Below, piece by piece: positions 9,794 to 22,760 of a stretch of 22,760 nt of DNA; the first letter of the stretch is position 1; every line of letters begins with the position of its first letter. The notes under the pieces are model-generated. The model made no database searches and had not been told where the DNA came from. It worked only from the letters and a program-made list of their open reading frames with translations. The translations under genes were made by a program, and so were the position numbers. The stretch is taken from positions 1 through 22,760 of the forward strand of contig JAWAQK010000041.1 of assembly GCA_038893995.1 (NCBI GenBank), given 5' to 3'. The DNA comes from Candidatus Thorarchaeota archaeon (GTDB lineage Archaea > Asgardarchaeota > Thorarchaeia > Thorarchaeales > Thorarchaeaceae).

Positions 9794-11419
9794 CTACCTG
9801 ATACAGTCCAACCACAGTCCTATCTGTTCGTCGGGACAGTTCCACTCATGTCTGTCTTCGTCCCAGAGTTCAAAGGGAATTATCCAACGGTCTTGCATCA
9901 CATCTCCGATGAGTCCTCCGGATACACCTGGATGGAGGCCCTCGATGGTCCTCATCAGTCCGTAACCTCCGCCGCATGGAAGGCCACACATCATGATCAT
10001 TGAGTCATCAATGTCGAACGCAACGATGGACCTCGGCAGTCTGATCGCCCACGCCGCAAGAGACTCGCCGGCGGACGGTTCATGGGAGAGGACGAATGCA
10101 TTTTCCACCAGTCCGACGTTATGCAGTTCCACTATTGTGCCTAACACTCCAAGTTTCCTCAGTCGCTTCAGTTTCGAGGCCACCTTCTCCTGACCGACTC
10201 TGAGTTCAGACCTGATGGTGCTGACCGACTGTCTACCGCTATGGACCATCCTGGCGATGACCATGTCGAGACCGTCGAGATCACGGACAAGCTCCTCCTT
10301 CTGGACATAGAACTTGGGCATGGCAGATGCAAGGCCGTCCCTGTGTATCCTCTCAAGTTCGGTCTTGACAATGCTCCAGGGAATGTTCCAGACCCCACGA
10401 TCAGGATCGTAATACTCGAGGCTGAAGTTGGCTCCGGAAGACATGACCTCCGAGTGTTCAACTGAGATTCCCCTCTTTCTTATCTCTCTCTCGAAGGTGT
10501 TGAGTGCACGTATGCTATCGTGATTGTCAGGTATGGACAGTGTGACGAGCAGTCTCCATCGTCCAGTGATGATGTTCCTCATGGAGTAGACGAAGGGACA
10601 GTGGTCGAACAGGCGAGTGAGGTTCTCGTTGGGATCCTCGCTGTCCATCAGTAGATTGAACATCCTTATTCCGATCTTGCTGAAGCGGACCGTCGTCCAC
10701 TGTCGGAGTACGTTTTTCTTCCTCAGATAGGAGATCCTCTCTGACACCCACTGGTATGTGAAGCCTGTACGCCTCGCGAGTTGTTTCTTTGGTATCATTG
10801 GTTCGTTCAGCAGGACCCTCAGCATCCTCACATCCGCAGCCGTGAGCGTGGTCACAAAGAGACGATACCTTCTCTCACAGTATCGTACATAGTCCTCAAA
10901 GTCGAGTGATAGTCCATGTCGCGACATGTGTTCGATCTCGTTCACGATCTCCCACAGACCTCTTCCATCTGTCAGGTCGTGGAGCGTGGTGAAGAAGCGC
11001 GCCGGACTGTAGCGGGTCACACGGTCAACGTACTTGTCCCTGACACACTCCCGCCAGAATGCAGCAATCCGTTCCTGGTCCTTCGTATCAAGTAAGGAAT
11101 ATGCCAGCGCCATGCCCAGGTCATCCACAGCCTCGCGGCAGACCTTGTCGGACATGACAGACCCGACGCACTCTCTACATACCACTGTGAAGATCCGACA
11201 TGGGTTTCCAACGATGTCTGCATCAAGAATGAGTGTGGAGCCGTCCAATCTTCCTCCAAGACCGAGGTCATTGCCACCCTCCACAAGCTTGACCTGAACG
11301 GGAGACGACGCGGGAGCCCGTCGGCTATTTTCCCTTAGCACGGCAGATACGGCCGCCCAGTACTCACGTACCAGAACAGTGACGTCAGTGTTCGTGTCAG
11401 CGTCAGTCACTTGGACCAT
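9794..11419 (-). CDS. 541-aa protein: uncharacterised N-terminal domain plus two Lrp/AsnC-like (wHTH + RAM-like) units
   Basis: HTH1 LTAADVRMLRVL...KKQLARRTGFTYQWVSERISYLRKKNVL...FSKIGI; HTH2 LDGLDMVIARMV...VSTIRSELRVGQEKVASKLKRLRKLGVL...NVGL. Start set at ATG 11419 after GAGGAGG, overlapping the csa3 stop. Confidence 0.8.
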   Translation of the reverse strand: MVQVTDADTNTDVTVLVREYWAAVSAVLRENSRRAPASSPVQVKLVEGGNDLGLGGRLDGSTLILDADIVGNPCRIFTVVCRECVGSVMSDKVCREAVDDLGMALAYSLLDTKDQERIAAFWRECVRDKYVDRVTRYSPARFFTTLHDLTDGRGLWEIVNEIEHMSRHGLSLDFEDYVRYCERRYRLFVTTLTAADVRMLRVLLNEPMIPKKQLARRTGFTYQWVSERISYLRKKNVLRQWTTVRFSKIGIRMFNLLMDSEDPNENLTRLFDHCPFVYSMRNIITGRWRLLVTLSIPDNHDSIRALNTFEREIRKRGISVEHSEVMSSGANFSLEYYDPDRGVWNIPWSIVKTELERIHRDGLASAMPKFYVQKEELVRDLDGLDMVIARMVHSGRQSVSTIRSELRVGQEKVASKLKRLRKLGVLGTIVELHNVGLVENAFVLSHEPSAGESLAAWAIRLPRSIVAFDIDDSMIMMCGLPCGGGYGLMRTIEGLHPGVSGGLIGDVMQDRWIIPFELWDEDRHEWNCPDEQIGLWLDCIR

Positions 11420-12066
11420 GCTCTCATCCTCCTCGCCTTCTTCAGCTGCAACACGGTCTCTCCCAGCTGGGTGATCTCTATGGAGTGTCTTCCCCTCTCC
11501 CGGCTGACCCTGACATAGCCCTCCCTCTCCAGTTGCTTGATGTGTTTGGATATAGAGGATGTACCCAGATCTACCAGCCTGCACAGGTCCCTCTGCTTCT
11601 TCACACTGCCCCCCGATCTAGTCAGCGTCTCCAGGATCTTGGCCTTGACAGGGGTCAGAGTGCGAGGAGAGAGAGGCTTCACCTCTACCAGATTCTTCAC
11701 GATCTGCCCCTCCTCCTCCGTGATGAAACAGACAGGTGCACCGATCAGGATTGAGGCCATGTGACAGGCGGCTCTCATGGCCGTCGTGCCACATGATATG
11801 TTAAATATGACATCGTATCCCGGGTGGTCGATCACGACCTTCAGCACGCTGCTGAGTATGGCCTCGTAGTCCCAGGGTTCGACAAGGATCTGTTCAATTG
11901 GGAACCCCAGTCTGGAGTGACGTCCAGATATCTCAGCTACATCTTCCAGGTTGTTCTGGGTACAGACCAGGACGAGCTTGTTTGCGCCCTTCTCCACAAG
12001 CACACGATCTACTCTCTGGTTCGCATGAAGTCCCAGTGTGGCGATCTGCAGTACCTTGTTTGGCAT
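11407..12066 (-). CDS. csa3: CARF + winged-HTH transcriptional regulator (Csa3/DUF6293-like)
   Basis: N-terminal Rossmann-like QIATLG..., VIFNISCGTTAM (CARF-type N-x-S-G-G-like motif); C-terminal wHTH LTPVKAKIL...QRDLCRLVDLGTSSISKHIKQLEREGYV...ITQLG; adjacent to the cas operon. Start ATG 12066. Confidence 0.75.
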   Translation of the reverse strand: MPNKVLQIATLGLHANQRVDRVLVEKGANKLVLVCTQNNLEDVAEISGRHSRLGFPIEQILVEPWDYEAILSSVLKVVIDHPGYDVIFNISCGTTAMRAACHMASILIGAPVCFITEEEGQIVKNLVEVKPLSPRTLTPVKAKILETLTRSGGSVKKQRDLCRLVDLGTSSISKHIKQLEREGYVRVSRERGRHSIEITQLGETVLQLKKARRMRAWSK

Positions 12067-12104
12067 CTGAACGCGTCCAGGGTTGTAACATCCCTCTTTC
12101 AAAT

Positions 12105-12124
12105 GTTTCCATCCTGATTTCAAC
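12105..12124 (-). repeat. Internally deleted CRISPR-repeat-like 20-mer
   Basis: GTTGAAATCAGGATGGAAAC: repeat-like 5' end (GTTGAAATCAG) joined directly to a canonical 3' handle (ATGGAAAC). Confidence 0.4.
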
Positions 12125-12189
12125 TAGTCATCAAGAGTCCAACACGACTCCTGGATGACAAGTTGGGGGGTTCTGTGTTACACGTGTTC

Positions 12190-12213
12190 GCGTCACCGTA
12201 GTCCCGGTGACGC
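12190..12213 (-). terminator. Perfect 9-bp GC-rich hairpin at the end of the cas effector operon
   Basis: GCGTCACCG-tagtcc-CGGTGACGC (+ strand), 8 nt beyond the stop at 12222; role inferred from position. Confidence 0.55.
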
Positions 12214-12221
12214 ACTGATGG

Positions 12222-12521
12222 TCACACTCCATCCTCCTGAAGACCCAGAATGGCCATGGTAGTCTTGGCCCAATTCTGGAACTGGCCTCTAAGGTCGTCT
12301 AGTTCAGTCATGAGGGAGCGCATCTCCTCCGGTGTTGGGCCCCCACCCCTGCGTCGGAGCAAGAGATGCACTCCCCGTCTTTTTTTCACTATTTCTGTAG
12401 TCTGGCAGTCCAGATCAAGTATTGCTGCGAGTCGCGAGGCTGCCGTTCCTGATTCAGATGCCGACAACAGGTCGATACATTTTCGATCGGTCACTTCAAC
12501 AACCCCTCCTGTCAGTGACAT
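12222..12521 (-). CDS. Hypothetical ~99-aa protein, last gene of the cas operon
   Basis: Start overlaps the csa1 stop; same strand; amphipathic C-terminal helix; followed by a hairpin. No family recognised. Confidence 0.55.
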   Translation of the reverse strand: MSLTGGVVEVTDRKCIDLLSASESGTAASRLAAILDLDCQTTEIVKKRRGVHLLLRRRGGGPTPEEMRSLMTELDDLRGQFQNWAKTTMAILGLQEDGV

Positions 12522-13462
12522 TCGCTCCAGTATGGACAGTCCTCGTAGCAGACTCGCGGCAGGCCTGGATCCCTCTGGTCGTAGATCAGCTTCATGGCCT
12601 GGTCTCTGAGCTCCAAGAACTCCTGTCGAAGTGTTTCATCTATCTGATGTACATCATACTCGATCTGAGGAGGAATCGGTTTCTTGAACCAGCAGTAGAC
12701 TACGCATCCCACGTCGACAGGGTACTCATGTATGCTCTCGATCACCATAGCATAGCCCGTCGTCGACAGCCTGTGAAAGTATCTCTTTTCCCCTGTCTTG
12801 ATATCTAGTACGACACCCTCGATACCGTACGCATCAGCGCTGAGGTGGCCGCTCAGGCCCAGGTTTCTCCCATCCAGTCTCTGCTCTACCACTATTGGTA
12901 GGACCGTGTTCACTAGTGCGTCAAGCCCAATATGGGGCTGCATCGTGAGTACCTGGTCTGTCTTTGCTACTAGCAAGTTGACCTCGTAGTCCCAGAGCCA
13001 TGACATGTTGGTCCTCACTTTTGCAGGGTCCCACACACCTCCTCTGTCGGTGACCTCTGGAGGCCTGACGGTCGATAGCAGGTCGTCGATGATCTCGTCT
13101 CTAATCTCAGCCATCCTTGTGCCGAGTTCCTGGGCCGAGACCCGTCCCATGCCATACAGCTCCCTCTTTCCATGGTAGACCACAGACGCGACTGTGGCGT
13201 GATAGAGTCCTCCCTCGATCATCTTCGCATTGGTCGGCCTTCTCTTCCCCTCGACGTACCTGAGGTACAGGTCTCTCATCGATTCACAGTATCGACTGAC
13301 AAGTTCGCTGAGGGAGAGCTGGTAATCGTAGGGCGGGTCTATCGGCGGAACCTCCCATGACCAGCCCCTGAACCTCTCGTCGACGACTATCTCTCGAGAA
13401 CGACGACGATGTCTCCTCAACAGGCGACGCTTTATCTCATCCGGTAGGATGTACAGTTTCAC
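12512..13462 (-). CDS. csa1: CRISPR-associated Cas4-family nuclease Csa1 (Cas4a, type I-A-like)
   Basis: FRGWSWEVPPIDPP, LSLSELVSRYC...RDLYLRYV, EQRLDGRNLGLS..LSADA, DIKTG, HRL..TGYA...ES....PVDVG, C-terminal C-x3-C-x5-C. Start GTG 13462 after a G-rich SD. Confidence 0.9.
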   Translation of the reverse strand: MKLYILPDEIKRRLLRRHRRRSREIVVDERFRGWSWEVPPIDPPYDYQLSLSELVSRYCESMRDLYLRYVEGKRRPTNAKMIEGGLYHATVASVVYHGKRELYGMGRVSAQELGTRMAEIRDEIIDDLLSTVRPPEVTDRGGVWDPAKVRTNMSWLWDYEVNLLVAKTDQVLTMQPHIGLDALVNTVLPIVVEQRLDGRNLGLSGHLSADAYGIEGVVLDIKTGEKRYFHRLSTTGYAMVIESIHEYPVDVGCVVYCWFKKPIPPQIEYDVHQIDETLRQEFLELRDQAMKLIYDQRDPGLPRVCYEDCPYWSECH

Positions 13463-14285
13463 GCTCCCCCCTTGTGAAACCCGTTTCAAGTCTGACCTCG
13501 ACCTGACCAAATCCTGCAGTCCTGTTCTTGCCCACATTGCTCAGCTCTGCGAACTTGGCGAGCCCTGCGGTCATCATGCCAAGAGGAGACGTTGCATTTC
13601 TGAGCGTATACACAACCCGACCCAAGAATCCGACAATGCTTCTCTCACGACCCAGATCCACCTCTGCCGTCCGGAGGTTGTAGGCCGATACATGGACATT
13701 CTTTTCGACCCAGTCCCTGTAGTCCGACACATGTTCGATGGCAGTCTTCCCCTCAATCTGGTTCCAGACTCTCAGCAACGATGTGAACACGCGCTCGGGT
13801 GACGGGAGAAGACAGGCATAGTCCGAGCCATAGGCCGACAGCTGAGTCGGGGTGATAAACGACATCACTATCCTGACAGTGTCGTCAAAGGTGTTCCTGA
13901 ACTCCTCTATCCATGAGTCCATCATCATTGCAGTCTCATAGGAACTGAAGTCGATTCTCCTGAGATGAAACACTTCATGGTGGACTCTGAGTGACCTGCC
14001 CGCCCTGAGCGCAAACTGCCGTATCGCATCACGATAGCGGTCCGAGTCCAACAGATTCACCCTGAAATAGTAGATCTGCCCCTGGAGAAAGGTCGTTGTG
14101 AAGTCCCTGCCGCAGGGGAAAGGCTGTAGGGCATACGTACGTATCCCTCTCTCGTCGTGGACGCGACCGCTGAGTTGTTCGTCACACTCCCTGAGCAGAC
14201 TCAGGAACGCAGCCCTGAGAGGTGGTCCGGTGAACCCAAACTGGCCCGTGAATGAGCTCTCCACCTCGAACCGCAACTCAATCAT
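13437..14285 (-). CDS. cas6: CRISPR precrRNA endoribonuclease Cas6
   Basis: FITPT, LPSPE.VF.SL...W, GF.G, C-terminal Gly-loop NVGKNRTAGFG; ATG 14285 overlaps the cas3 stop, with a GGAGG SD. Confidence 0.93.
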   Translation of the reverse strand: MIELRFEVESSFTGQFGFTGPPLRAAFLSLLRECDEQLSGRVHDERGIRTYALQPFPCGRDFTTTFLQGQIYYFRVNLLDSDRYRDAIRQFALRAGRSLRVHHEVFHLRRIDFSSYETAMMMDSWIEEFRNTFDDTVRIVMSFITPTQLSAYGSDYACLLPSPERVFTSLLRVWNQIEGKTAIEHVSDYRDWVEKNVHVSAYNLRTAEVDLGRERSIVGFLGRVVYTLRNATSPLGMMTAGLAKFAELSNVGKNRTAGFGQVEVRLETGFTRGERETVHPTG

Positions 14286-16365
14286 GTCTAGTGTCCTCCA
14301 TACGCTGTTTCTCGCAGAGATAGTGGGCAACAATTGCCCAATCACCAATTACGAGTGCTCCACCCCCGTCCTCACAGTAGAGCCTTGGAATTCGAAAGTC
14401 TGTTCCTCTCCGCAACGAGTTCCACAGGAAGACCAGGTTTCTGCCCTCTAGGAGATCGTTGATGACATCTGTCATCAGCCGATCGTGGCACTTGATTGTC
14501 GTTTCACTCCTGTTGAACAGACTGACGTTATGCCGTGCCCGGGCGTCAGCAGCAGCGCTAACCCTGGGCAATGGTGACCTCCGGAAGTCGCGGACCACGA
14601 AGACCGGATCGTCTACAGAATACTTCATCTGGAGTTGCCTCGGGATGGTCTGCCAGTGCCTCTCAGCCCGTTCTAGCTTGCCCTCCATCTTGAATACGTC
14701 AAAGATATCTGCCTCAGCTACAACTTCCCCCTGAGGTGCACCGACCAACCATCCGGGATACATGACTAGGACGTTGTTTATAGATCCTCGGAGAAGACCG
14801 TTCGTGGCCAGTGCACTGACGGTCCTCTTGTTGAGTTCGCTCCTGACCAGCACGTCATCAAGTCCGCCTATCACGTCGATGAGTTGCTTCTGCCCCATGC
14901 TGATCTTTCCGTTTGCCTTGACTAGCCTCTTGAAGTACTCACATGCCTCAGCCACGTTGTATTCTGTCCGCTTATGGTAGATGTCGTGTTCCCTTGACGC
15001 GGCAAGCGCCATTGCCAAGAGTATAGTCCTGACGTGGCGGCTGCAGACAAAGTCTGCGTATGATGGCATGTCTCGAAATGCCTCCTTTGCCTGGTCAATG
15101 AAGTCCGGATACGACCACTCTTCCGACCTCCCTAGTCGCAGCGTCATGGTGTCGGGGACGTAGAGCACACAATCACACGGCCCATGCCGGCCACCCCTTC
15201 CGAAACGCTGGAGGAATGATGCCAGATCATGGGCCTCCATCACGAGCCGTGGTACGTCAAAGTCCACGCCGACCTCTATTGACGAGGTCCCAATCAGGAT
15301 AGCGTTAGAGAGCCTCTCGATGCTTGGCCTGGCCGATCTGGGAATCAGACCATGATTCTGCACGACGATACTATCTGCATCCAGCCCCCTATCACTCAGG
15401 ATATCCTTGACTCTCCGAGCGACCGAGATTGCAAACATGACCGAGGAGAATATCGCCAGTACCTTTACGTGATAGTCTTTCCCTGGTGGTCCTGGAGTCT
15501 CATACAGGCGAAGGATATCGCCGGCAACCTCATCCAGTCGATCGTCCTCGACCAGTACGGTCGACTGCGTCCTCAGTTCCACTCTGCATTCATGTCGTAT
15601 CTGCCTCAGACTAGGTCCGTCCTCTGGCAGCGGAGTGGCCCTGATGATGTCCGCCTCAGGGTAAGTGTTCTTGAGCAGGTCAATCACATCACCGTGCGTT
15701 GCACTCAGGAACACAAGGTCCACCTGTGGCGAGGGCGAGCTGTAGAAATCGTTGAGCATGAACATGAGTCTGGCCAGGGTAGGACCGGCGTAGAGATGAA
15801 ACTCATCCACGACGATCGTCTGGAACTTGAAGAGCTGATCGCTTATCAGGCCAGACCTGGCATACATTCCGGCATTCACCATATACAGGGTGTCCGGATT
15901 GGTGAGCAGGATCCTCAGTCTGCCCCTCTTGTCCGTTGCAGTGAGGATCCTCTCCAATGCCGTCCCCTTGGCGTGGTCACCGGCAATTCTCTCCAGGCTG
16001 TCTCCGGTCGCAAGTATCAGATCGACTGCCCTGTCGTCAGAGCGTATCACGCTCCCAGGATCCCAGGACTCGCTGATACAGTTGGGCGCATACCCTATCA
16101 TTTCAAGGAGTCTGGCTATGCTGTTGAACTGATCCTCCACGAGCGCATTGGTCGGGTAGATGAATACGGCAGGCCTCTGATGCTCGACGACGCGAGCAAG
16201 AGCGGCAAGCGTCTTGCCTGAGCCTGTCGGTGCGTCAAGCACCACCACTCTGCTCTTAGACTCGATCGTCTTCAGCTGATGCTCGCTCAGTTCTACTTCT
16301 CCTCTCTTGACCCCGGTCTGTGGTATGTATGCGCCTCCAACTCTCACCGGCCTGCCCTCTGCCAA
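14278..16365 (-). CDS. cas3: Type I-D Cas3' helicase (no HD domain)
   Basis: APTGSGKT, YPTNALVEDQ, TNPD, DEFH, SAT, GTSSIEVGVDF, QRFGRGGR SF2 motifs; the HD nuclease is on Cas10d. Confidence 0.95.
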   Translation of the reverse strand: MAEGRPVRVGGAYIPQTGVKRGEVELSEHQLKTIESKSRVVVLDAPTGSGKTLAALARVVEHQRPAVFIYPTNALVEDQFNSIARLLEMIGYAPNCISESWDPGSVIRSDDRAVDLILATGDSLERIAGDHAKGTALERILTATDKRGRLRILLTNPDTLYMVNAGMYARSGLISDQLFKFQTIVVDEFHLYAGPTLARLMFMLNDFYSSPSPQVDLVFLSATHGDVIDLLKNTYPEADIIRATPLPEDGPSLRQIRHECRVELRTQSTVLVEDDRLDEVAGDILRLYETPGPPGKDYHVKVLAIFSSVMFAISVARRVKDILSDRGLDADSIVVQNHGLIPRSARPSIERLSNAILIGTSSIEVGVDFDVPRLVMEAHDLASFLQRFGRGGRHGPCDCVLYVPDTMTLRLGRSEEWSYPDFIDQAKEAFRDMPSYADFVCSRHVRTILLAMALAASREHDIYHKRTEYNVAEACEYFKRLVKANGKISMGQKQLIDVIGGLDDVLVRSELNKRTVSALATNGLLRGSINNVLVMYPGWLVGAPQGEVVAEADIFDVFKMEGKLERAERHWQTIPRQLQMKYSVDDPVFVVRDFRRSPLPRVSAAADARARHNVSLFNRSETTIKCHDRLMTDVINDLLEGRNLVFLWNSLRRGTDFRIPRLYCEDGGGALVIGDWAIVAHYLCEKQRMEDTRHD

Positions 16366-17145
16366 TCACCCCGCCTCCGTATCCCACACGGCACGATACA
16401 CGTCTGCCTTAGGCAAGGGGATCTTGTGCGCGAGGCCCTGTGTGTCCCTGCACTCCAGATACGGCCCATCGAGCTCTGCAGCAACGAGCACGGGCGCAGG
16501 AGGTATTGTGAGGAGACTGCCAGACCGAATGGAGGTATTCTCAGGAAGGTCCACCACATTCACAGGGCAGGTCGGATGAAAGACGCCCTCTCTCCTTGTG
16601 GCCTCCAGAGGATATGCACTCAGCCGGGCAGGGATAAACTTCTTCCCCACCCGAATGATGCTTGGTATGGGACCCCCAATTGCATAGAAGTAGAGCATTG
16701 TCAGTGGTGGATATCGATAGTATGCCCCCAGTTTTGGCAGATTGATGTTGTCCTGCGTCATCTTGTCGAGCAGAGTCTCACCGATGCTGTTCCAGGTGAT
16801 ACGCAGGGGCAGACCCCCACTCCAGGGAACAGCCACCGTACCACAGAGCGGTGCCTGCCTGTTGACCCAGCTCTTTCCCCCTCCTACTAGGTAGTCTGGA
16901 AAGTCGTTGATCATTGCCGCGGGAGTGGCGTAGACCGACATTCTGCCCAGGTCATCACAGTAGTGTGGCTTGACTTCTGATACGATCCTTCGCACCTCAG
17001 GAACATGTCGGTTCAGTGCATACATGAGGGCGTAGTTGCCGACTATCTCGGATGGACGCGCAACAGCGCCGTAGTCCTGGCTGGCGTAGTATAGGTAGTC
17101 GTGGCAAGTCATCAGGACGAGGTTGACGACCGGGTCCTTTGACAT
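16366..17145 (-). CDS. cas5: Type I-D Cas5 (Csc1)
   Basis: HDYLYYAS, VGNYALMYAL, VYATPA, PSIIRVGKK, PVNVVDLP motifs. Start 17145 after GAGGTGA (17154/17157 possible). Confidence 0.9.
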   Translation of the reverse strand: MSKDPVVNLVLMTCHDYLYYASQDYGAVARPSEIVGNYALMYALNRHVPEVRRIVSEVKPHYCDDLGRMSVYATPAAMINDFPDYLVGGGKSWVNRQAPLCGTVAVPWSGGLPLRITWNSIGETLLDKMTQDNINLPKLGAYYRYPPLTMLYFYAIGGPIPSIIRVGKKFIPARLSAYPLEATRREGVFHPTCPVNVVDLPENTSIRSGSLLTIPPAPVLVAAELDGPYLECRDTQGLAHKIPLPKADVYRAVWDTEAG

Positions 17146-17153
17146 CGGTGTCA

Positions 17154-18107
17154 TCACCTCTGTTTCTTCTTGGCCCCGGACTTCTCTGAAGTGGCTATGG
17201 CTACGAACTCATCAACCTGCTTCTGCATCGCCTCGACAAAGCCCTTGTCAAGATTCAGATCCTGCACATCTGCCAATAGTTTCTTGCTCTCCTCAGCAGA
17301 CAGGACTACTAGGTTGTTTCTTGAGGCACTCAGCTTCGAGTAACGTTTCAGTATCTCCTCCGTAGCAGCCTCTAGGTCCAGCTTCTCGTCCCACAATGCC
17401 GCCATCTCGAGACTGTATTCGAGCGAGGTGATGATCTCCTCATAACCTGCTGCGATGCCCAGGACCAGGTTACGCACGTCTCCCTTGGTACGGGTCTCAG
17501 CGCCGTATGACTTGCATGCAAGGAGGGTCTTCAGGTAGAGGGCCAGTTCTTGCCAGGTGACCGAGGTCAGAGTGACTACAGATGGGAAGTTTGCAAGGGG
17601 CCTGACATTGTGTGTCAGGTTCAATGCCTGACCCGTCATCTGTGTGTTCTCCTCCACCGCGTTGAATGTTATGGACTCAAGAAGGTCTTCGTAGGGCTCT
17701 ATTGAGAACGCCGTGGAGTACTCTATTCTGTGCTTGATGTTGTAGTCTGTTCCTTTTACGGACACGCTACCGAAGAGCGCACAGCGGGGACATTTCATGC
17801 AGAGTCTGTCCTTTAGACTGCAGTCGTACTCATGGACCGTTCTCAGAAGTCGCGAAAACATCCTTGACTCCGGAGCCTTCTGCTTCGATGCAAGAAACGC
17901 CACTTTCACGGTCGGCTTCGTTGACCTGATGCTCTCAGGCACCACAACAGTGTTCAGTTCGCGGCTCTCTTCTGTCCGAAGTATCGTGTAGTCGTGCGTC
18001 TGTCTGAGCAAGAGTACCTGGACTACACGTGCGTCAAGCAATGGTGAGATCTTGTCGACTAGGTACGGTTCCAGTTTCTTGAAGCTGATTGGGATCTTTG
18101 CTGACAT
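17154..18107 (-). CDS. cas7: Type I-D Cas7 (Csc2)
   Basis: LRQTHDY...RTE, SKQKAPE.R, Zn-finger C...C.KCPRCALFG, RIEYSTAFS, TFNA, F.SVVTL, YGAETR..G motifs. Confidence 0.95.
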   Translation of the reverse strand: MSAKIPISFKKLEPYLVDKISPLLDARVVQVLLLRQTHDYTILRTEESRELNTVVVPESIRSTKPTVKVAFLASKQKAPESRMFSRLLRTVHEYDCSLKDRLCMKCPRCALFGSVSVKGTDYNIKHRIEYSTAFSIEPYEDLLESITFNAVEENTQMTGQALNLTHNVRPLANFPSVVTLTSVTWQELALYLKTLLACKSYGAETRTKGDVRNLVLGIAAGYEEIITSLEYSLEMAALWDEKLDLEAATEEILKRYSKLSASRNNLVVLSAEESKKLLADVQDLNLDKGFVEAMQKQVDEFVAIATSEKSGAKKKQR

Positions 18108-18716
18108 CTACTCTTTCGCCTCCTTCTTCTTCTTTCTCTGTTCCCAGAACTCCTTGACCAATTCCTGAAGGCCCGAGGGCACGGACCAGGGATCAGGAAC
18201 CTCCTCGAACGAGCCGTACTGCTCTACCTCCGCAAGTTCGTTGACTCTCTCGATTGTACCAAACTTACCCTTTAGCCACTCTTGGAACTCTCTCTGCACG
18301 AAGGCTCTCTGGCCGACTACCTTGTCTCGATATGCTCTGAAGAACACCTCGTCATCGAGGTCCTCTACTGTTCTGAGCCATTTCGTTGGTGGGAGTAGAC
18401 TCCTCAAGTGCTGGAGGTGCCTCACCGCCTCGTCAAGTGCCTCCGCGGCGGTCGCAGGTACAGCTCCGGCCTGCTGGTTCTTCTGGACATTCAGGACGTA
18501 TCCCTTCACGGCCTCCCAGTTGATGTCACCTGTTGTAGTGAGCCGTGTGAGCAACTTGCCCACAGGACCCATGAGTGAATGCTTTGAGTCACTCTGAGGT
18601 CCCTCTGGCCTGAATGTCTTGAGATACTTGACCAGTGCCTCTGCGGCCTCAGATCTGGTCTTTACTACTTCCTTGATGTCGAACTTCTCTTCTTCTCTAC
18701 TCATTCGGATTGCCAT
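18108..18716 (-). CDS. cas11: Stand-alone Cas11 (small subunit) with C-terminal extension
   Basis: Lies between cas10d and cas7; helical; SKHSLMGPV resembles the Cas10d C-terminal/Cas11d region; own SD GAGGTGATC before ATG 18716 (202 aa). Confidence 0.7.
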   Translation of the reverse strand: MAIRMSREEEKFDIKEVVKTRSEAAEALVKYLKTFRPEGPQSDSKHSLMGPVGKLLTRLTTTGDINWEAVKGYVLNVQKNQQAGAVPATAAEALDEAVRHLQHLRSLLPPTKWLRTVEDLDDEVFFRAYRDKVVGQRAFVQREFQEWLKGKFGTIERVNELAEVEQYGSFEEVPDPWSVPSGLQELVKEFWEQRKKKKEAKE

Positions 18717-18732
18717 CTGATCACCTCTATCT

Positions 18733-21420
18733 TCATGTTGTATGATCTTCACGTATGCTTGGTAGCACCTCGAGGAGGGCTACCAGGCGCGACTTCTCAG
18801 CATGGCTGAGTCTTGACCAATCCTCATGTTCAGAACGTCTGAGGACTGCGCCCCTGCTCATGCTGGCGAGTCGGAGCATGCTGTCCTTTCCGAGTCCCTT
18901 TACGTAACTCATCGAGATCAGCTGTAGTGCTGCCAGGTTGCGGAGGGCGGTCCTGAGCTCATGCAGTTGTGGTTCTGTTGAGACGTCAAGTTGCGCGAGT
19001 GCTCTCTCTGCAGGGGGAGGTATCTGCACTCGGACTATGCCCTCCATCGAGAGGTCTGTGATGGGTTCGAAACCCTCCGTCACAATCACTCTTGCGTAGA
19101 ACACCTTCGCGATGATGAGGGCGAGAAGATACATGCGAAGAGTGCTCGTGCTGTGTGACTCCTCGTCATCCAGACGGGGTAGCTCTCTGAAGAAGACAAA
19201 CATGTGGCTAGGGGTCAAACATGCAGTGCCCTGGGTCCTTGTGGGACCCTTGTAGTCAGCCAGAATCCCCTCCTTGATCATCACGAGCCCCCTGATGTGT
19301 GCCCTGGCAAGGTCTTCCATGTTCCTTATCTGCGGGGACGGCGTGACAAGCACATCATAAGGGACCCTACTGAAGTCCCCCCAGTCCTCAAGGAACTTTA
19401 CGAGTCTACTGACATTATCATTAGATGGCCTCAGGGCCCTTGCTAGCTCAATGGCATTGTCGAGCGGTCTGTCATGAGCCAACCGATTGTAGACCTCCGA
19501 CATGTTCCACATGGACGCCATTGAGTTGCCCAGCCGTTCGGTGCGCACCAGTGCCTCCACACCAGCTGCCCATTGCCTTGCCAGGTCGGGACTCAGGTAG
19601 ATGTCTGGAATGACTATGAATGTTGCAGCAGGAGCGGAGGGGAAGTAGAATGCACGGAATGTGGACTCCAGTCTGCAGAGGGGACATACTTGAGCCTTGT
19701 ATCCCTTTCCTATCCTTGCCCCGGCCTTGAGCAGGTTTGAGAACCGCTGTGATCCATCACCAAAGAGGGTGGCCGGCGCATCATCTTCTGCGATTGCTCC
19801 ACAGAAGCTACAGACTCTCTGAGTCTGGTCCTTCCCCTTCAGATACCTCTGAAATGTGTCATTGGCGACCCTCTTCAGACTTTCGGACGTAGACATACGG
19901 ACTGGGAGGTGCTCGATGTCCGCGAGCAGAAGTACTACTGTCTCATGGGTGAAGATGTCTGGCATAGAGCCCGAGAACGCTAGCAGGATTTCCCTCAGTA
20001 CTTGGATGAACCTCTGTTCGAGCACACCCCTTCTGTCGCTCTTGAGATGCAGATTGTTACGACCCACGTCCCAGAGCCTTGCTACAGTATCGACCTGATC
20101 GATCTTAGTTTCTGACGCCTTCCTAGCTATCGGAGTCGTATGCGAGATTCCGCTCAGCTCATCGAGTGTGAAGGAGAGCCCATTCTTGCTCAGAATGTCA
20201 TTCATCCTCTGTACAGGATTCTGTCCTTGGCTCCCGTTCCTGGCGTATTCACCGTACGTCTTGATCAGGTCCGCAACGTACACGAAGAGATAGAAGTCTC
20301 CGACCATCTTCGCCAGAATGCTCGCATCCGTATCAGGACTACCACCTGAGCCGCAGCTCCTCAGGAAGTCCCGTATGCGCTGTATCTGGTCTGGGTCTAG
20401 CTTCCCGTCTTTCGCGTCCAGAATCTCCCCGACGTCCTTTGCCTCCTTATTCATGGCCGGCATCGAAGAGAGATGCCGTACTATTTGCGGGATGTCATCA
20501 GCACGGATCAGCTGGGGACAGGGCCACTTGGTCTGTGTGAACGGTCCTATGACTGCGTTTAGCAGCCCGAGTCTATACTCCTCTGACGACTGGAAAAGCG
20601 CTATCTGCCTCCTGATGGCGGCTTCAAGCAATGTCTGCGCATCGTCAATCTGTTTCGGCTCCCCGACACACACGTAGGCGACTCCCCTCGGGAAATAGGC
20701 TATAGGGATGTAGCCTGCACTCCTCATGACATCAATTATTGCCTCATTCAGGAAGCTTGTGATCAGCCCTCGTATCGTCGTGATCTCGTGGTACTCGAAT
20801 GAGACATTGGTTCCCTGTGGAAGTGCGAGATCATGCTTCTTTCCAACGATGTCCTTTGGTTCCTTCATGCTCGCAATGCTGTCAGCCATTCTCACCAGTG
20901 GGACTAGTTCATCAGCAGCTCCGACCTGATTTCGTCGTTTCGAGGACACAGCAGGACTCTCAGTGTCGTGTGTGTATACGACCATGTTCAGTAGCCTTGG
21001 AAGGTGTGGGACAATCCTCTCACTGGCACCCTGTGCATTGATCTTCGCCTCAATCTCCCTCAGGAGTTCTTCGAGTTTCTGCCCCTGTTCTTCAGAGCCA
21101 TCATCGTGGTCGAATGTGCCGTCGGGCGGTCTTTCGCCACGCAGGAACGAAATGGCTGCGTCTTGCCATCTCCTCTCGGCCTTCTGGTAGTCGTGCAGAA
21201 ACGCGCCAAGACATCCGAGTACTAGATCGTCGCCAGACAGGCCATAGATACTTGCACCCAACTCTTTTGCGATAGAGAATGCATTCACGGAGTGGACCAG
21301 TAGAGACTGTTTGTTCTTGGAGGAGAACTTTGCGTAGCAGTATCCCCAGCCTCGCTCTATCGAGACCGAGAGCAGGGCCTGCAGCAGTTGATTCAGTCTC
21401 TGATCTAGATCCTCGCTCAT
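18733..21420 (-). CDS. cas10d: Type I-D large subunit Cas10d (Csc3) with N-terminal HD nuclease
   Basis: QSLLVHSVN...FLHDYQK HD domain, ADSIAS, YHE....RG..T..LN, Zn finger CSFCG...CPLC..E; no GGDD; 895 aa. Confidence 0.92.
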   Translation of the reverse strand: MSEDLDQRLNQLLQALLSVSIERGWGYCYAKFSSKNKQSLLVHSVNAFSIAKELGASIYGLSGDDLVLGCLGAFLHDYQKAERRWQDAAISFLRGERPPDGTFDHDDGSEEQGQKLEELLREIEAKINAQGASERIVPHLPRLLNMVVYTHDTESPAVSSKRRNQVGAADELVPLVRMADSIASMKEPKDIVGKKHDLALPQGTNVSFEYHEITTIRGLITSFLNEAIIDVMRSAGYIPIAYFPRGVAYVCVGEPKQIDDAQTLLEAAIRRQIALFQSSEEYRLGLLNAVIGPFTQTKWPCPQLIRADDIPQIVRHLSSMPAMNKEAKDVGEILDAKDGKLDPDQIQRIRDFLRSCGSGGSPDTDASILAKMVGDFYLFVYVADLIKTYGEYARNGSQGQNPVQRMNDILSKNGLSFTLDELSGISHTTPIARKASETKIDQVDTVARLWDVGRNNLHLKSDRRGVLEQRFIQVLREILLAFSGSMPDIFTHETVVLLLADIEHLPVRMSTSESLKRVANDTFQRYLKGKDQTQRVCSFCGAIAEDDAPATLFGDGSQRFSNLLKAGARIGKGYKAQVCPLCRLESTFRAFYFPSAPAATFIVIPDIYLSPDLARQWAAGVEALVRTERLGNSMASMWNMSEVYNRLAHDRPLDNAIELARALRPSNDNVSRLVKFLEDWGDFSRVPYDVLVTPSPQIRNMEDLARAHIRGLVMIKEGILADYKGPTRTQGTACLTPSHMFVFFRELPRLDDEESHSTSTLRMYLLALIIAKVFYARVIVTEGFEPITDLSMEGIVRVQIPPPAERALAQLDVSTEPQLHELRTALRNLAALQLISMSYVKGLGKDSMLRLASMSRGAVLRRSEHEDWSRLSHAEKSRLVALLEVLPSIREDHTT

Positions 21421-21607: not shown

Positions 21608-22246
21608 CTATGAGGTCTGACACTGATCTGCAAATCCACAACCTGCCTTACCCCGAGAACACTGTCTTCTGTGAGGGGGAACTGTTCCTGACTCCACCAT
21701 TCGCCAGATCGAACTGATCATTTTCTCCGTCCTCTTCTTGAGACTATGTGAGATGTTGACGATCACCGAGGTTTCGTCGTCGAGGTAGTGAACGATCCCT
21801 CTGCGTACGATTGTGTTGTCTACCTCTTCAACGAGTATTGCCAGTACGGCAATCTGGTACTTGTGATCCAGATGCACCTGTCCCCGGTTGCTCCGCATTG
21901 CCTTGAATTCTACAGGGATGCGTTCCCCGCTCGTCGTGATTACGAGCATGTCGACCCTGCCCAGTGTTCCTAGCCGATCCGAGATCAGTAGCCGGTCGAA
22001 TTGTTTTGCAGAGATGTCGAAAGGGAACCTAGACTTCAATAGTGACTGTCGTCTGCCCTCTAGGTCTGCAATCTTCTCATGGACCTTTCTGGCCTCCTCC
22101 TGCTGGGAACCCACTATGGGTCTCAGTCGCATCACCCTAGTGAAGTAGGTGACCATCGGACAGAACATGTACTGCTTCACGTCTGTCACACTCAGGTATT
22201 CATCCTCGATGTCTGTGGTCCTAGAATACTCTGACTCTCTCGCCAA
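21608..22246 (-). CDS. cas4: CRISPR-associated exonuclease Cas4
   Basis: LSVTDVKQYMFCP...YF, GRVDML...PVEFK, three C-terminal Cys; TTG 22246 after GGAGGG, overlapping the end of cas2. Confidence 0.92.
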   Translation of the reverse strand: MARESEYSRTTDIEDEYLSVTDVKQYMFCPMVTYFTRVMRLRPIVGSQQEEARKVHEKIADLEGRRQSLLKSRFPFDISAKQFDRLLISDRLGTLGRVDMLVITTSGERIPVEFKAMRSNRGQVHLDHKYQIAVLAILVEEVDNTIVRRGIVHYLDDETSVIVNISHSLKKRTEKMISSIWRMVESGTVPPHRRQCSRGKAGCGFADQCQTS

Positions 22247-22511
22247 TGCCCTCCATCTCCTTCTCGGCCCCAATGACGATCCTGCCTCTGAAGCAGGGGT
22301 CACATAGTGGGAAGATTATGACCGAGTCTGTCTCATCCCCCTCATTGACCAGTTTCTGCAGGTCGGTCCTGAGCGAACTCAGCACGTGACGCAGTAGTTC
22401 TCCCTGAAACGTGCTGTACTGTATTCTCTCCAGACCGTAGTCCTTGAGACGCTCACTGACTCTCTCCCTGAGTGAGTCATCCGTGATGTCATATACGACT
22501 ATCCAGCGCAC
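22221..22511 (-). CDS. cas2: CRISPR-associated Cas2
   Basis: IVVYDITDD..R.RV...LKDYGLERIQYSTF.GEL, PLC..C; GTG 22511 after GGTGAGG. Confidence 0.95.
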   Translation of the reverse strand: MRWIVVYDITDDSLRERVSERLKDYGLERIQYSTFQGELLRHVLSSLRTDLQKLVNEGDETDSVIIFPLCDPCFRGRIVIGAEKEMEGIGERVRVF

Positions 22512-22516
22512 TGTCC

Positions 22517-22760
22517 TCACCACCGAAGATAGAACGGTTCGTAACGGGCTGATTCTCCACACAGGAACCTCGCGATAGACCAGGCCTGTCTGACGATGAC
22601 GTTTCTCAGCTCGACTTTGGACTCTCGAACCTGGACCCGCTCAGAGAGTCTGTTCACAACTCTGGATGCCACAGCCTCACGTGTAGATTTCGAGAGCATG
22701 TCTGGTTGAACATCGGTCTCGATCTTCAGTTCCTTACCAGTCAGGGAGTGTACCAGCACC
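22517..22760 (-). CDS. cas1: CRISPR-associated Cas1, C-terminal fragment (5' part outside the window)
   Basis: C-terminal I..QA..IARFL.G....Y.PF..RW motif directly upstream of cas2. Confidence 0.88.
   Translation of the reverse strand, partial: VLVHSLTGKELKIETDVQPDMLSKSTREAVASRVVNRLSERVQVRESKVELRNVIVRQAWSIARFLCGESARYEPFYLRW

Follow-up and report, generated by a model that had tools for sequence, protein, structure and literature searches.

In canonical CRISPR-Cas systems of type I-D, the small subunit Cas11d corresponds to the last ~146 residues of Cas10d, a segment that is also made separately by internal translation. I-D operons have been described as lacking a separate cas11 gene, with the 3' end of cas10d encoding Cas11d (PMC10212523, PMC3150331, McBride preprint), and internal translation of Cas11d has been stated to be conserved across I-D. 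The window analyzed here, a stretch of 22,760 nucleotides from a contig of Candidatus Thorarchaeota, contains a I-D locus in which a gene for a 202-aa protein stands between cas10d and csc2. A preliminary description, made from the letters of this DNA, had taken the protein for a stand-alone Cas11 with an extra, non-catalytic helical module related to GH42 beta-galactosidases. The locus therefore raises the question of whether this protein is the small subunit of a I-D effector, what has become of the Cas11 domain of the neighboring Cas10d, and what the additional C-terminal segment is.

A separate gene between cas10d and csc2

All genes of the locus lie on the minus strand, and the effector set is that of type I-D, comprising an HD-bearing Cas10d, Csc2 (Cas7d), Csc1 (Cas5d), and a separate Cas3' helicase (Table 1). 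One orthologue of the cas10d product carries the name Cas10d/Csc3 at NCBI. The arrangement of the small subunit departs from that of canonical I-D loci in that the window has a separate gene in place of a Cas11d encoded within the 3' end of cas10d.

Table 1. Features of the type I-D locus and of the 202-aa protein, with positions in the window
Feature	Position	Strand	Details and basis
cas4	21608-22303	minus	TIGR00372
cas10d	18733-21420	minus	895 aa, HD motif visible; TIGR03174 on N-terminal part, below cut-off
Shine-Dalgarno GAGGTGA of cas11d-like gene	18721-18727	minus	4 nt before ATG; read from sequence
Stand-alone cas11d-like gene	18108-18716	minus	202 aa plus TAG stop; ORF and translation
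Predicted Cas11d-like helical-bundle core, residues 15-140	18297-18674	minus	structural match to I-D Cas11 structures
C-terminal tail, residues 141-202	18111-18296	minus	model secondary structure; superposes on GH42 structures
Core GH42-type motif F..WL...[FY]G.I..[VL]N ... Y.SF..V.DP, residues 143-179	18180-18290	minus	hhalign; sub-threshold PF02449
csc2/cas7d	17154-18107	minus	PF18320, E 2e-43; TIGR03157
csc1/cas5d	16366-17157	minus	TIGR03159, E 5.5e-19
cas3' helicase	14278-16365	minus	downstream of effector genes; TIGR03158, E 1e-42
cas6	13437-14348	minus	PF10040
csa1	12512-13537	minus	PF06023
Csa3-like CARF-wHTH	11407-12123	minus	PF13463 and other wHTH families; weak Csa3_N (PF22662) and CARF matches

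The cas11d-like gene opens with an ATG at 18716 and closes with a TAG at 18110-18108. A GTG at 18752 was considered as an alternative start and was ruled out, since the orthologues open at the same M.IRM..EE residues as the reading frame that begins at the ATG. The TGA of cas10d occupies positions 18735-18733, which leaves a 16-nt spacer to the ATG with the Shine-Dalgarno sequence inside it, and the reading frames of the two genes differ. On the other side, the ATG of csc2 follows the TAG immediately, with no gap. The GH42-type stretch that was quoted in the preliminary description, FQEWLKGKFG...EEVPDP, was placed correctly, as residues 144-176 correspond exactly to 18189-18287.

No CRISPR array was detected within the 22,760-nt window by Tandem Repeats Finder, and neither cas1 nor cas2 was identified within it; cas4 is the last cas gene before the end of the window and is accompanied by a 113-aa ORF at 22221-22562. 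In the region from 9794 to 13537, csa1 lies within the effector operon and is followed by the Csa3-like CARF-wHTH gene and by a gene for a 596-aa protein with weak HTH matches; with these, the I-D locus carries accessory genes in I-A style.

The N-terminal part is predicted to fold like Cas11d

An AlphaFold2 model of the 202-aa protein, built on 34 orthologues (mean pLDDT 88, pTM 0.76), is all-helical and contains no strands, with helices at residues 14-32, 45-62, 67-81, 88-107, 110-152, 155-162, and 181-201. When this model was aligned with VIA-align against 48,161 PDB representative chains, type I-D Cas11 structures took all of the first three places, in agreement with the earlier proposal that the N-terminal half is Cas11-like. 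The best match was Synechocystis Cas11d (7sba_J; Z 8.3, 121 aa, rmsd 3.6 Å, model residues 15-140 against chain residues 1-146), followed by Cas10d of S. islandicus (6thh_C; Z 8.0, model 18-134 against chain 722-844) and Cas10d of Synechocystis (7sbb_I; Z 7.7, model 13-140 against chain 826-975). The matched ranges in the two Cas10d chains are the Cas11 domains of these proteins (PMC7689449, PMC9123187). A Z score of ~8 is only middling for a helical bundle, and the assignment hence leans on the ranking, the gene position, and the complementary truncation of Cas10d together. That three I-D Cas11 structures should occupy the top three places for a gene in this position is unlikely to be due to chance. 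The model thus points to a Cas11d-like helical bundle in residues 15-140, within which an SKHxLMGPxGKLL loop is conserved in the orthologue alignment. As is characteristic of a Cas11, the gene stands in the effector operon beside that of the large subunit; in the window, as in ~45 related loci, it is flanked by cas10d and csc2.

Other searches did not recover this relationship. With Foldseek, there was no match in the PDB at E <= 0.001, and the best of the weak rows was Cas10d 6thh_C. Pfam and NCBIfam scans of the 202-aa protein gave no match to the Cas11, Csm2, Cmr5, or Cse2 families or to a curated Cas11d model, and a PDB sequence search with the protein returned no Cas11 chains. Cas11 families are notoriously divergent. 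A PDB profile match to a cytochrome c555 trimer (E 6e-5) arose from three sub-threshold repeats and was taken as spurious. Prediction of a two-copy complex of the 202-aa protein scored 0.00 against a mark of 0.42, which speaks neither for nor against self-association.

Compared with Synechocystis Cas11d (7SBA chain J), the window protein has the same predicted bundle fold over the 121 aligned residues, belongs to a system of the same composition (HD-Cas10d, Csc2, Csc1, and Cas3'), and presumably occupies the same place in the minor filament. In contrast to the Synechocystis protein, it has its own gene and ribosome-binding site, the two share only ~12% identity, and its 62-residue tail is missing from the 146-aa Synechocystis Cas11d, while the window Cas10d in turn lacks the Cas11 domain. 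Likewise, the fold resembles that of the C-terminal Cas11 domain of Saccharolobus islandicus Cas10d (6THH, residues 720-847), but this domain is fused there, whereas the window has a free protein with a tail.

Cas10d ends where Cas11d would begin

A model of residues 560-895 of the window Cas10d (17 orthologues, pLDDT 85) matched 7sbb_I with a Z score of 11.8, the next match having a Z score of 5.6, and residues 19-333 of the modeled fragment cover residues 570-829 of the Synechocystis protein. In Synechocystis, Cas11d begins at M830 of Cas10d, from internal translation. The match ending at 829 and Synechocystis Cas11d starting at M830, the two window genes appear to be equivalent to one canonical cas10d cut at the domain border. 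No similarity to a hidden Cas11 domain was seen by hhalign when the last 250 residues of the window Cas10d were compared with the family profile. A search for longer, fused relatives of 355-2000 aa gave none at E <= 0.01, which is weak evidence. The description of the protein as a stand-alone Cas11 is therefore borne out by its own gene with a Shine-Dalgarno sequence and by a Cas10d that stops at the Cas11 boundary. With Cas10d ending at the equivalent of residue 829 and a separate gene after it, the locus is best filed as a variant of I-D.

It is of note that the I-D large subunit is split in another way on the Clostridium botulinum plasmid NZ_CP063961.1 (locus L099:2069-4977), where a short cas10d (765 aa) has a gene for a 188-aa "HD domain-containing protein" immediately upstream and cas7d immediately downstream.

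The C-terminal tail resembles a segment of TIM-barrel glycosidases

The tail consists of the end of the long helix (110-152), the short helix (155-162), a loop, and the terminal helix (181-201). In a Pfam scan, residues 140-180 of the 202-aa protein aligned to positions 150-194 of the 376-position GH42 profile PF02449 (E 0.013), with a score of 15.3 bits that is below the gathering cut-off of 21; the best E value for this profile among 18 relatives was 1.3e-4. GH42 crystal-structure sequences aligned at the tail motif with E values of 0.04-0.7 in PDB sequence and profile searches. When the tails of 40 family members were compared with an alignment of 19 Asgard GH42 enzymes in a profile-profile alignment (hhalign), the match reached a probability of 95.9% and an E value of 6.1e-9 with 42% consensus identity, over only 36 columns; the reversed tail and the N-domain, used as controls, gave probabilities of 0.05% and 0.3%. 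The whole-family profile also retrieved GH42 genes in two Asgard genomes at the corresponding place.

The predicted structure agrees with the profile match. Model residues 136-202 superposed on the GH42 structures 1kwk, 6ptm, 3tts, 5xb7, and 4ucf with rmsd values of 1.7-2.2 Å over 57-67 residues (19-33% identity), for example on residues 151-225 of 1kwk_A (Z 6.4, rmsd 1.9 Å, 67 aa, 25% identity), and ESM Atlas models likewise matched GH42 over residues 135-202. These superpositions start from predicted models and are not fully independent of the sequence match, as AlphaFold2 could have picked up the GH42-like conformation of this stretch through the motif itself. Profile and structure both point to the stretch after strand 4 of the GH42 domain, which upholds the proposed likeness; it was less aptly called a helical subdomain, since in GH42 enzymes this segment is built into the TIM barrel. 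In addition, the motif turned out not to be specific to GH42 and is also seen in structures of GH14 and other TIM-barrel glycosidases. The tail also superposes on GH14 beta-amylases (1b90) and on another glycoside hydrolase structure (5gsm), and a phmmer search over 1.84 billion proteins led to a sugar ABC permease of 658 aa (BPD_transp_1; L004:6001-7977, P0092; E 3.4e-7). The N-terminal half of this permease contains the motif about four times in tandem, as F..WL..KYG.[IV]..LN.A.G, and its gene belongs to a sulfatase/glycosidase locus. The tandem copies suggest that the motif may be a self-contained, repeatable module. Taken together, these matches make it probable that the tail is homologous both to the permease repeats and to the stretch that follows strand 4 in GH42-type TIM-barrel glycosidases.

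The window protein and Thermus A4 GH42 (1KWK 151-225) have the motif F..WL...YG.[IL]..LN...(W)G...Y..F.E[IV]..P in common. In contrast to the GH42 catalytic domain, the tail spans only ~65 residues and has no TIM barrel and no catalytic glutamates. The all-helical model holds no (beta/alpha)8 barrel, and neither the catalytic acid/base nor the nucleophile glutamate is present, so that the protein is not a glycosidase and the module is indeed non-catalytic, as had been supposed. NCBI nevertheless calls one Thorarchaeota orthologue (P0011, 65% identity) "beta-galactosidase," a mis-annotation that stems from the weak PF02449 match in the tail. The lysine-rich end that was noted before is present in the window protein as QRKKKKEAKE; it is not a conserved property of the family, as bacterial members finish in acidic residues.

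Distribution and evolution of the split loci

Close orthologues (52-68% identity, ~200 aa) were found in Thorarchaeota/Promethearchaeota genomes assembled from metagenomes, and 54 orthologues of ~200 aa were retrieved. An exhaustive search gave 69 representatives down to ~25% identity, which fall into two length classes. The long forms (~200-230 aa) occur in Asgard archaea and in many bacteria, including Tumebacillus avium, Phosphitispora, Pelotomaculum propionicicum, Fuchsiella, and Thermincola, among others, as well as members of the Chloroflexota, Desulfobacteraceae, Acidobacteriota, and Nitrospira. The short forms (142-154 aa) have no tail and come from Thermofilaceae, Thermoprotei, and Geoglobus. 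Each of 10 bacterial relatives is annotated as "hypothetical protein" or carries no name. Nearly all of the 37 named genome loci have the order cas10d (827-915 aa), cas11d-like gene, csc2, csc1, and cas3', a few of the contigs being too short for the whole operon, and several metagenome contigs show the same gene order. In Asgard archaea and many bacteria, the cas10d of this arrangement measures 865-915 aa. By comparison, cas7d directly follows a cas10d of 975 aa on Synechocystis pSYSA and of 1070 aa in Chlorohelix. The position of the helicase gene cas3' differs as well: every split locus has it downstream of csc1, whereas in both Synechocystis and Chlorohelix it is upstream of cas10d.

The split loci also form a group by their Csc2 proteins. 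In a Csc2 tree, one branch with an SH-aLRT value of 100 separates split from fused loci. Csc2 proteins of the split clade share 39-77% identity with that of the window, and those of fused loci share 25-27%.

The tail motif is kept down to 21-27% overall identity, and in distant long forms it is even more GH42-like (KYG..E.L..AWG); F190 in the last helix is nearly invariant. The preliminary description spoke of a module gained by the subunit; the tail is conserved across a large split I-D clade of bacteria and Asgard archaea and is neither peculiar to the window protein nor a recent addition to it. As proposed, it is not part of ordinary Cas11d proteins and is missing from the 146-aa chain 7sba_J as well as from the 142-154-aa short relatives. 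In a tree of the core alone, for which the root is not fixed, long forms flank the short clade on both sides, and the simplest reading of this topology is a single loss of the tail. Most likely, the ancestor of the split I-D clade thus already had the tail, and the short forms lost it. Since the short-form loci manage without it, the tail is not required for the split.

Discussion

We favor the explanation that the window encodes a split-gene type I-D Cas11d with a GH42-related, non-catalytic tail that may serve as a contact arm of the minor filament, and we regard this as likely. In this reading, Cas11d has a translationally coupled gene of its own, placed between cas10d and cas7d, and Cas10d stops exactly at the Cas11 domain boundary. 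The Synechocystis complex contains one Cas10d, seven Cas7d, one Cas5d, and two Cas11d subunits, and the C-terminus of Cas10d forms the first unit of the minor filament. By analogy, about three copies of the 202-aa protein may form the minor filament, or belly, of Cascade and stabilize the R-loop, with one copy probably filling the place of the missing Cas10d C-terminal domain. In the model, the last core helix (110-152) runs on into the tail, which is predicted to fold into a small hairpin; the tail could act as a rigid arm that offers extra protein-contact surface toward neighboring Cas11 copies, Cas7d, or the truncated Cas10d. A general role of the tail tip in DNA binding is unlikely, as the basic end is not conserved and bacterial members are acidic.

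Three other readings were weighed against this. The assignment as Cas11d could be right and the GH42 likeness convergent; the tail would then show a widespread amphipathic helix-turn-helix pattern, unrelated by descent to GH42 and irrelevant to function. Such convergence would fit with a significant alignment of only 36 columns, with Pfam and PDB sequence matches below threshold, and with the fact that the GH42 segment belongs to a barrel and is not a mobile domain. However, the reversed-tail and N-domain controls score at chance level, and the link to the repeated permease modules among 1.84 billion proteins has an E value of 3.4e-7; furthermore, the more distant family members look more GH42-like (KYG..E.L..AWG), and the superposition reaches past the motif, to 67 residues at an rmsd of 1.9 Å. 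We consider convergence unlikely for these reasons, and less likely still is that the tail was gained recently in the Asgard lineage from a resident GH42 gene. GH42 genes were found in 37 of the 151 Asgard genomes searched, with a motif variant close to the tail; there was no GH42 gene in the 26 genomes of the window's own family. A recent gain is already contradicted by the distribution of the tail, which is found in bacterial members as distant as 21-27% identity and flanks the short clade on either side in the tree, so that we give it hardly any weight.

The protein might also not be a Cascade subunit at all but an accessory or regulatory helical protein that happens to be encoded in the operon; the small-subunit role would then be absent or fall to something else. 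The lack of a Cas11 sequence-family match, the modest Z scores, and the existence of a paralogue in a housekeeping neighborhood (see below) could be read in this way. This is improbable in light of the fixed position between cas10d and csc2 with translational coupling in every locus examined, the truncation of Cas10d exactly at the Cas11 boundary, and the best three structural matches, all of which are type I-D Cas11.

The preferred explanation, a split-gene Cas11d with a possible contact arm, has precedents in other subtypes. In I-E3, Cas11 is fused to a PD-(D/E)xK nuclease, and in III-H, a diverged Cas11 stands in place of the Cas10 C-terminal domain (PMC12669027). The former shows that a small subunit can gain an extra module, although the subtype and the module are different and there is no GH-like tail; the latter shows that a large subunit can lose its C-terminal helical domain to a separate Cas11, again in another subtype. 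The 2025 classification contains no case of a type I-D Cas11 fusion or replacement (PMC12669027). The preliminary description did not know of the fusion as described, and in searches of openly accessible papers neither a stand-alone cas11d nor a GH42-like tail was described. What the window contains is a conserved and apparently undescribed type I-D variant and not a one-off fusion.

Such a clade, present in Asgard archaea, Thermoproteota, and many bacterial phyla, contradicts the generalization, made in reviews and primary papers, that I-D operons have no cas11 gene and that Cas11d arises by internal translation throughout I-D. It provides a natural experiment on why small subunits fuse to or split from large subunits and on the direction of change between type III and type I. 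As Cas11d must be supplied separately in eukaryotic hosts, a naturally split I-D system would also be convenient for engineering. The tail is a rare case of a fragment of a TIM-barrel enzyme occurring as a free-standing module in an unrelated protein, and it causes mis-annotation, at least one orthologue being named "beta-galactosidase" at NCBI. More tentatively, and as a possibility that we would not yet call probable, the split loci may represent a distinct, widely transferred I-D sub-variant that has kept or regained a type III-like separate small-subunit gene. Its Cas11d would carry a portable helical module for interactions, of a kind that TIM-barrel glycosidases and sugar ABC permeases also have, and the minor filament would thereby gain a contact absent from canonical Cascades; in Thorarchaeia, the gene would have been further exapted into a housekeeping paralogue. 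If this were true, the separate small-subunit state of split I-D would be of direct relevance to how type I is proposed to have arisen from type III.

The paralogue of the Cas11d core is a protein of 138-141 aa encoded by 33 Thorarchaeial genomes, most of which belong to two genera (g8 and g12). In all six of the loci examined (L020:1471-1890 on the minus strand, L033:1483-1896 on the plus strand, L019, L023, L029, and L036), its gene has an M50/PDZ site-2 protease gene on one side and ncsA/ttuA (tRNA 2-thiolation) on the other and is not part of a CRISPR locus. The protein has neither the SKHxLMGP loop nor the tail. Its long branch falls inside the clade of Asgard Cas11d proteins, which makes an exapted Cas11 a possible origin, and its existence suggests that a Cas11d-like fold can serve outside Cascade.
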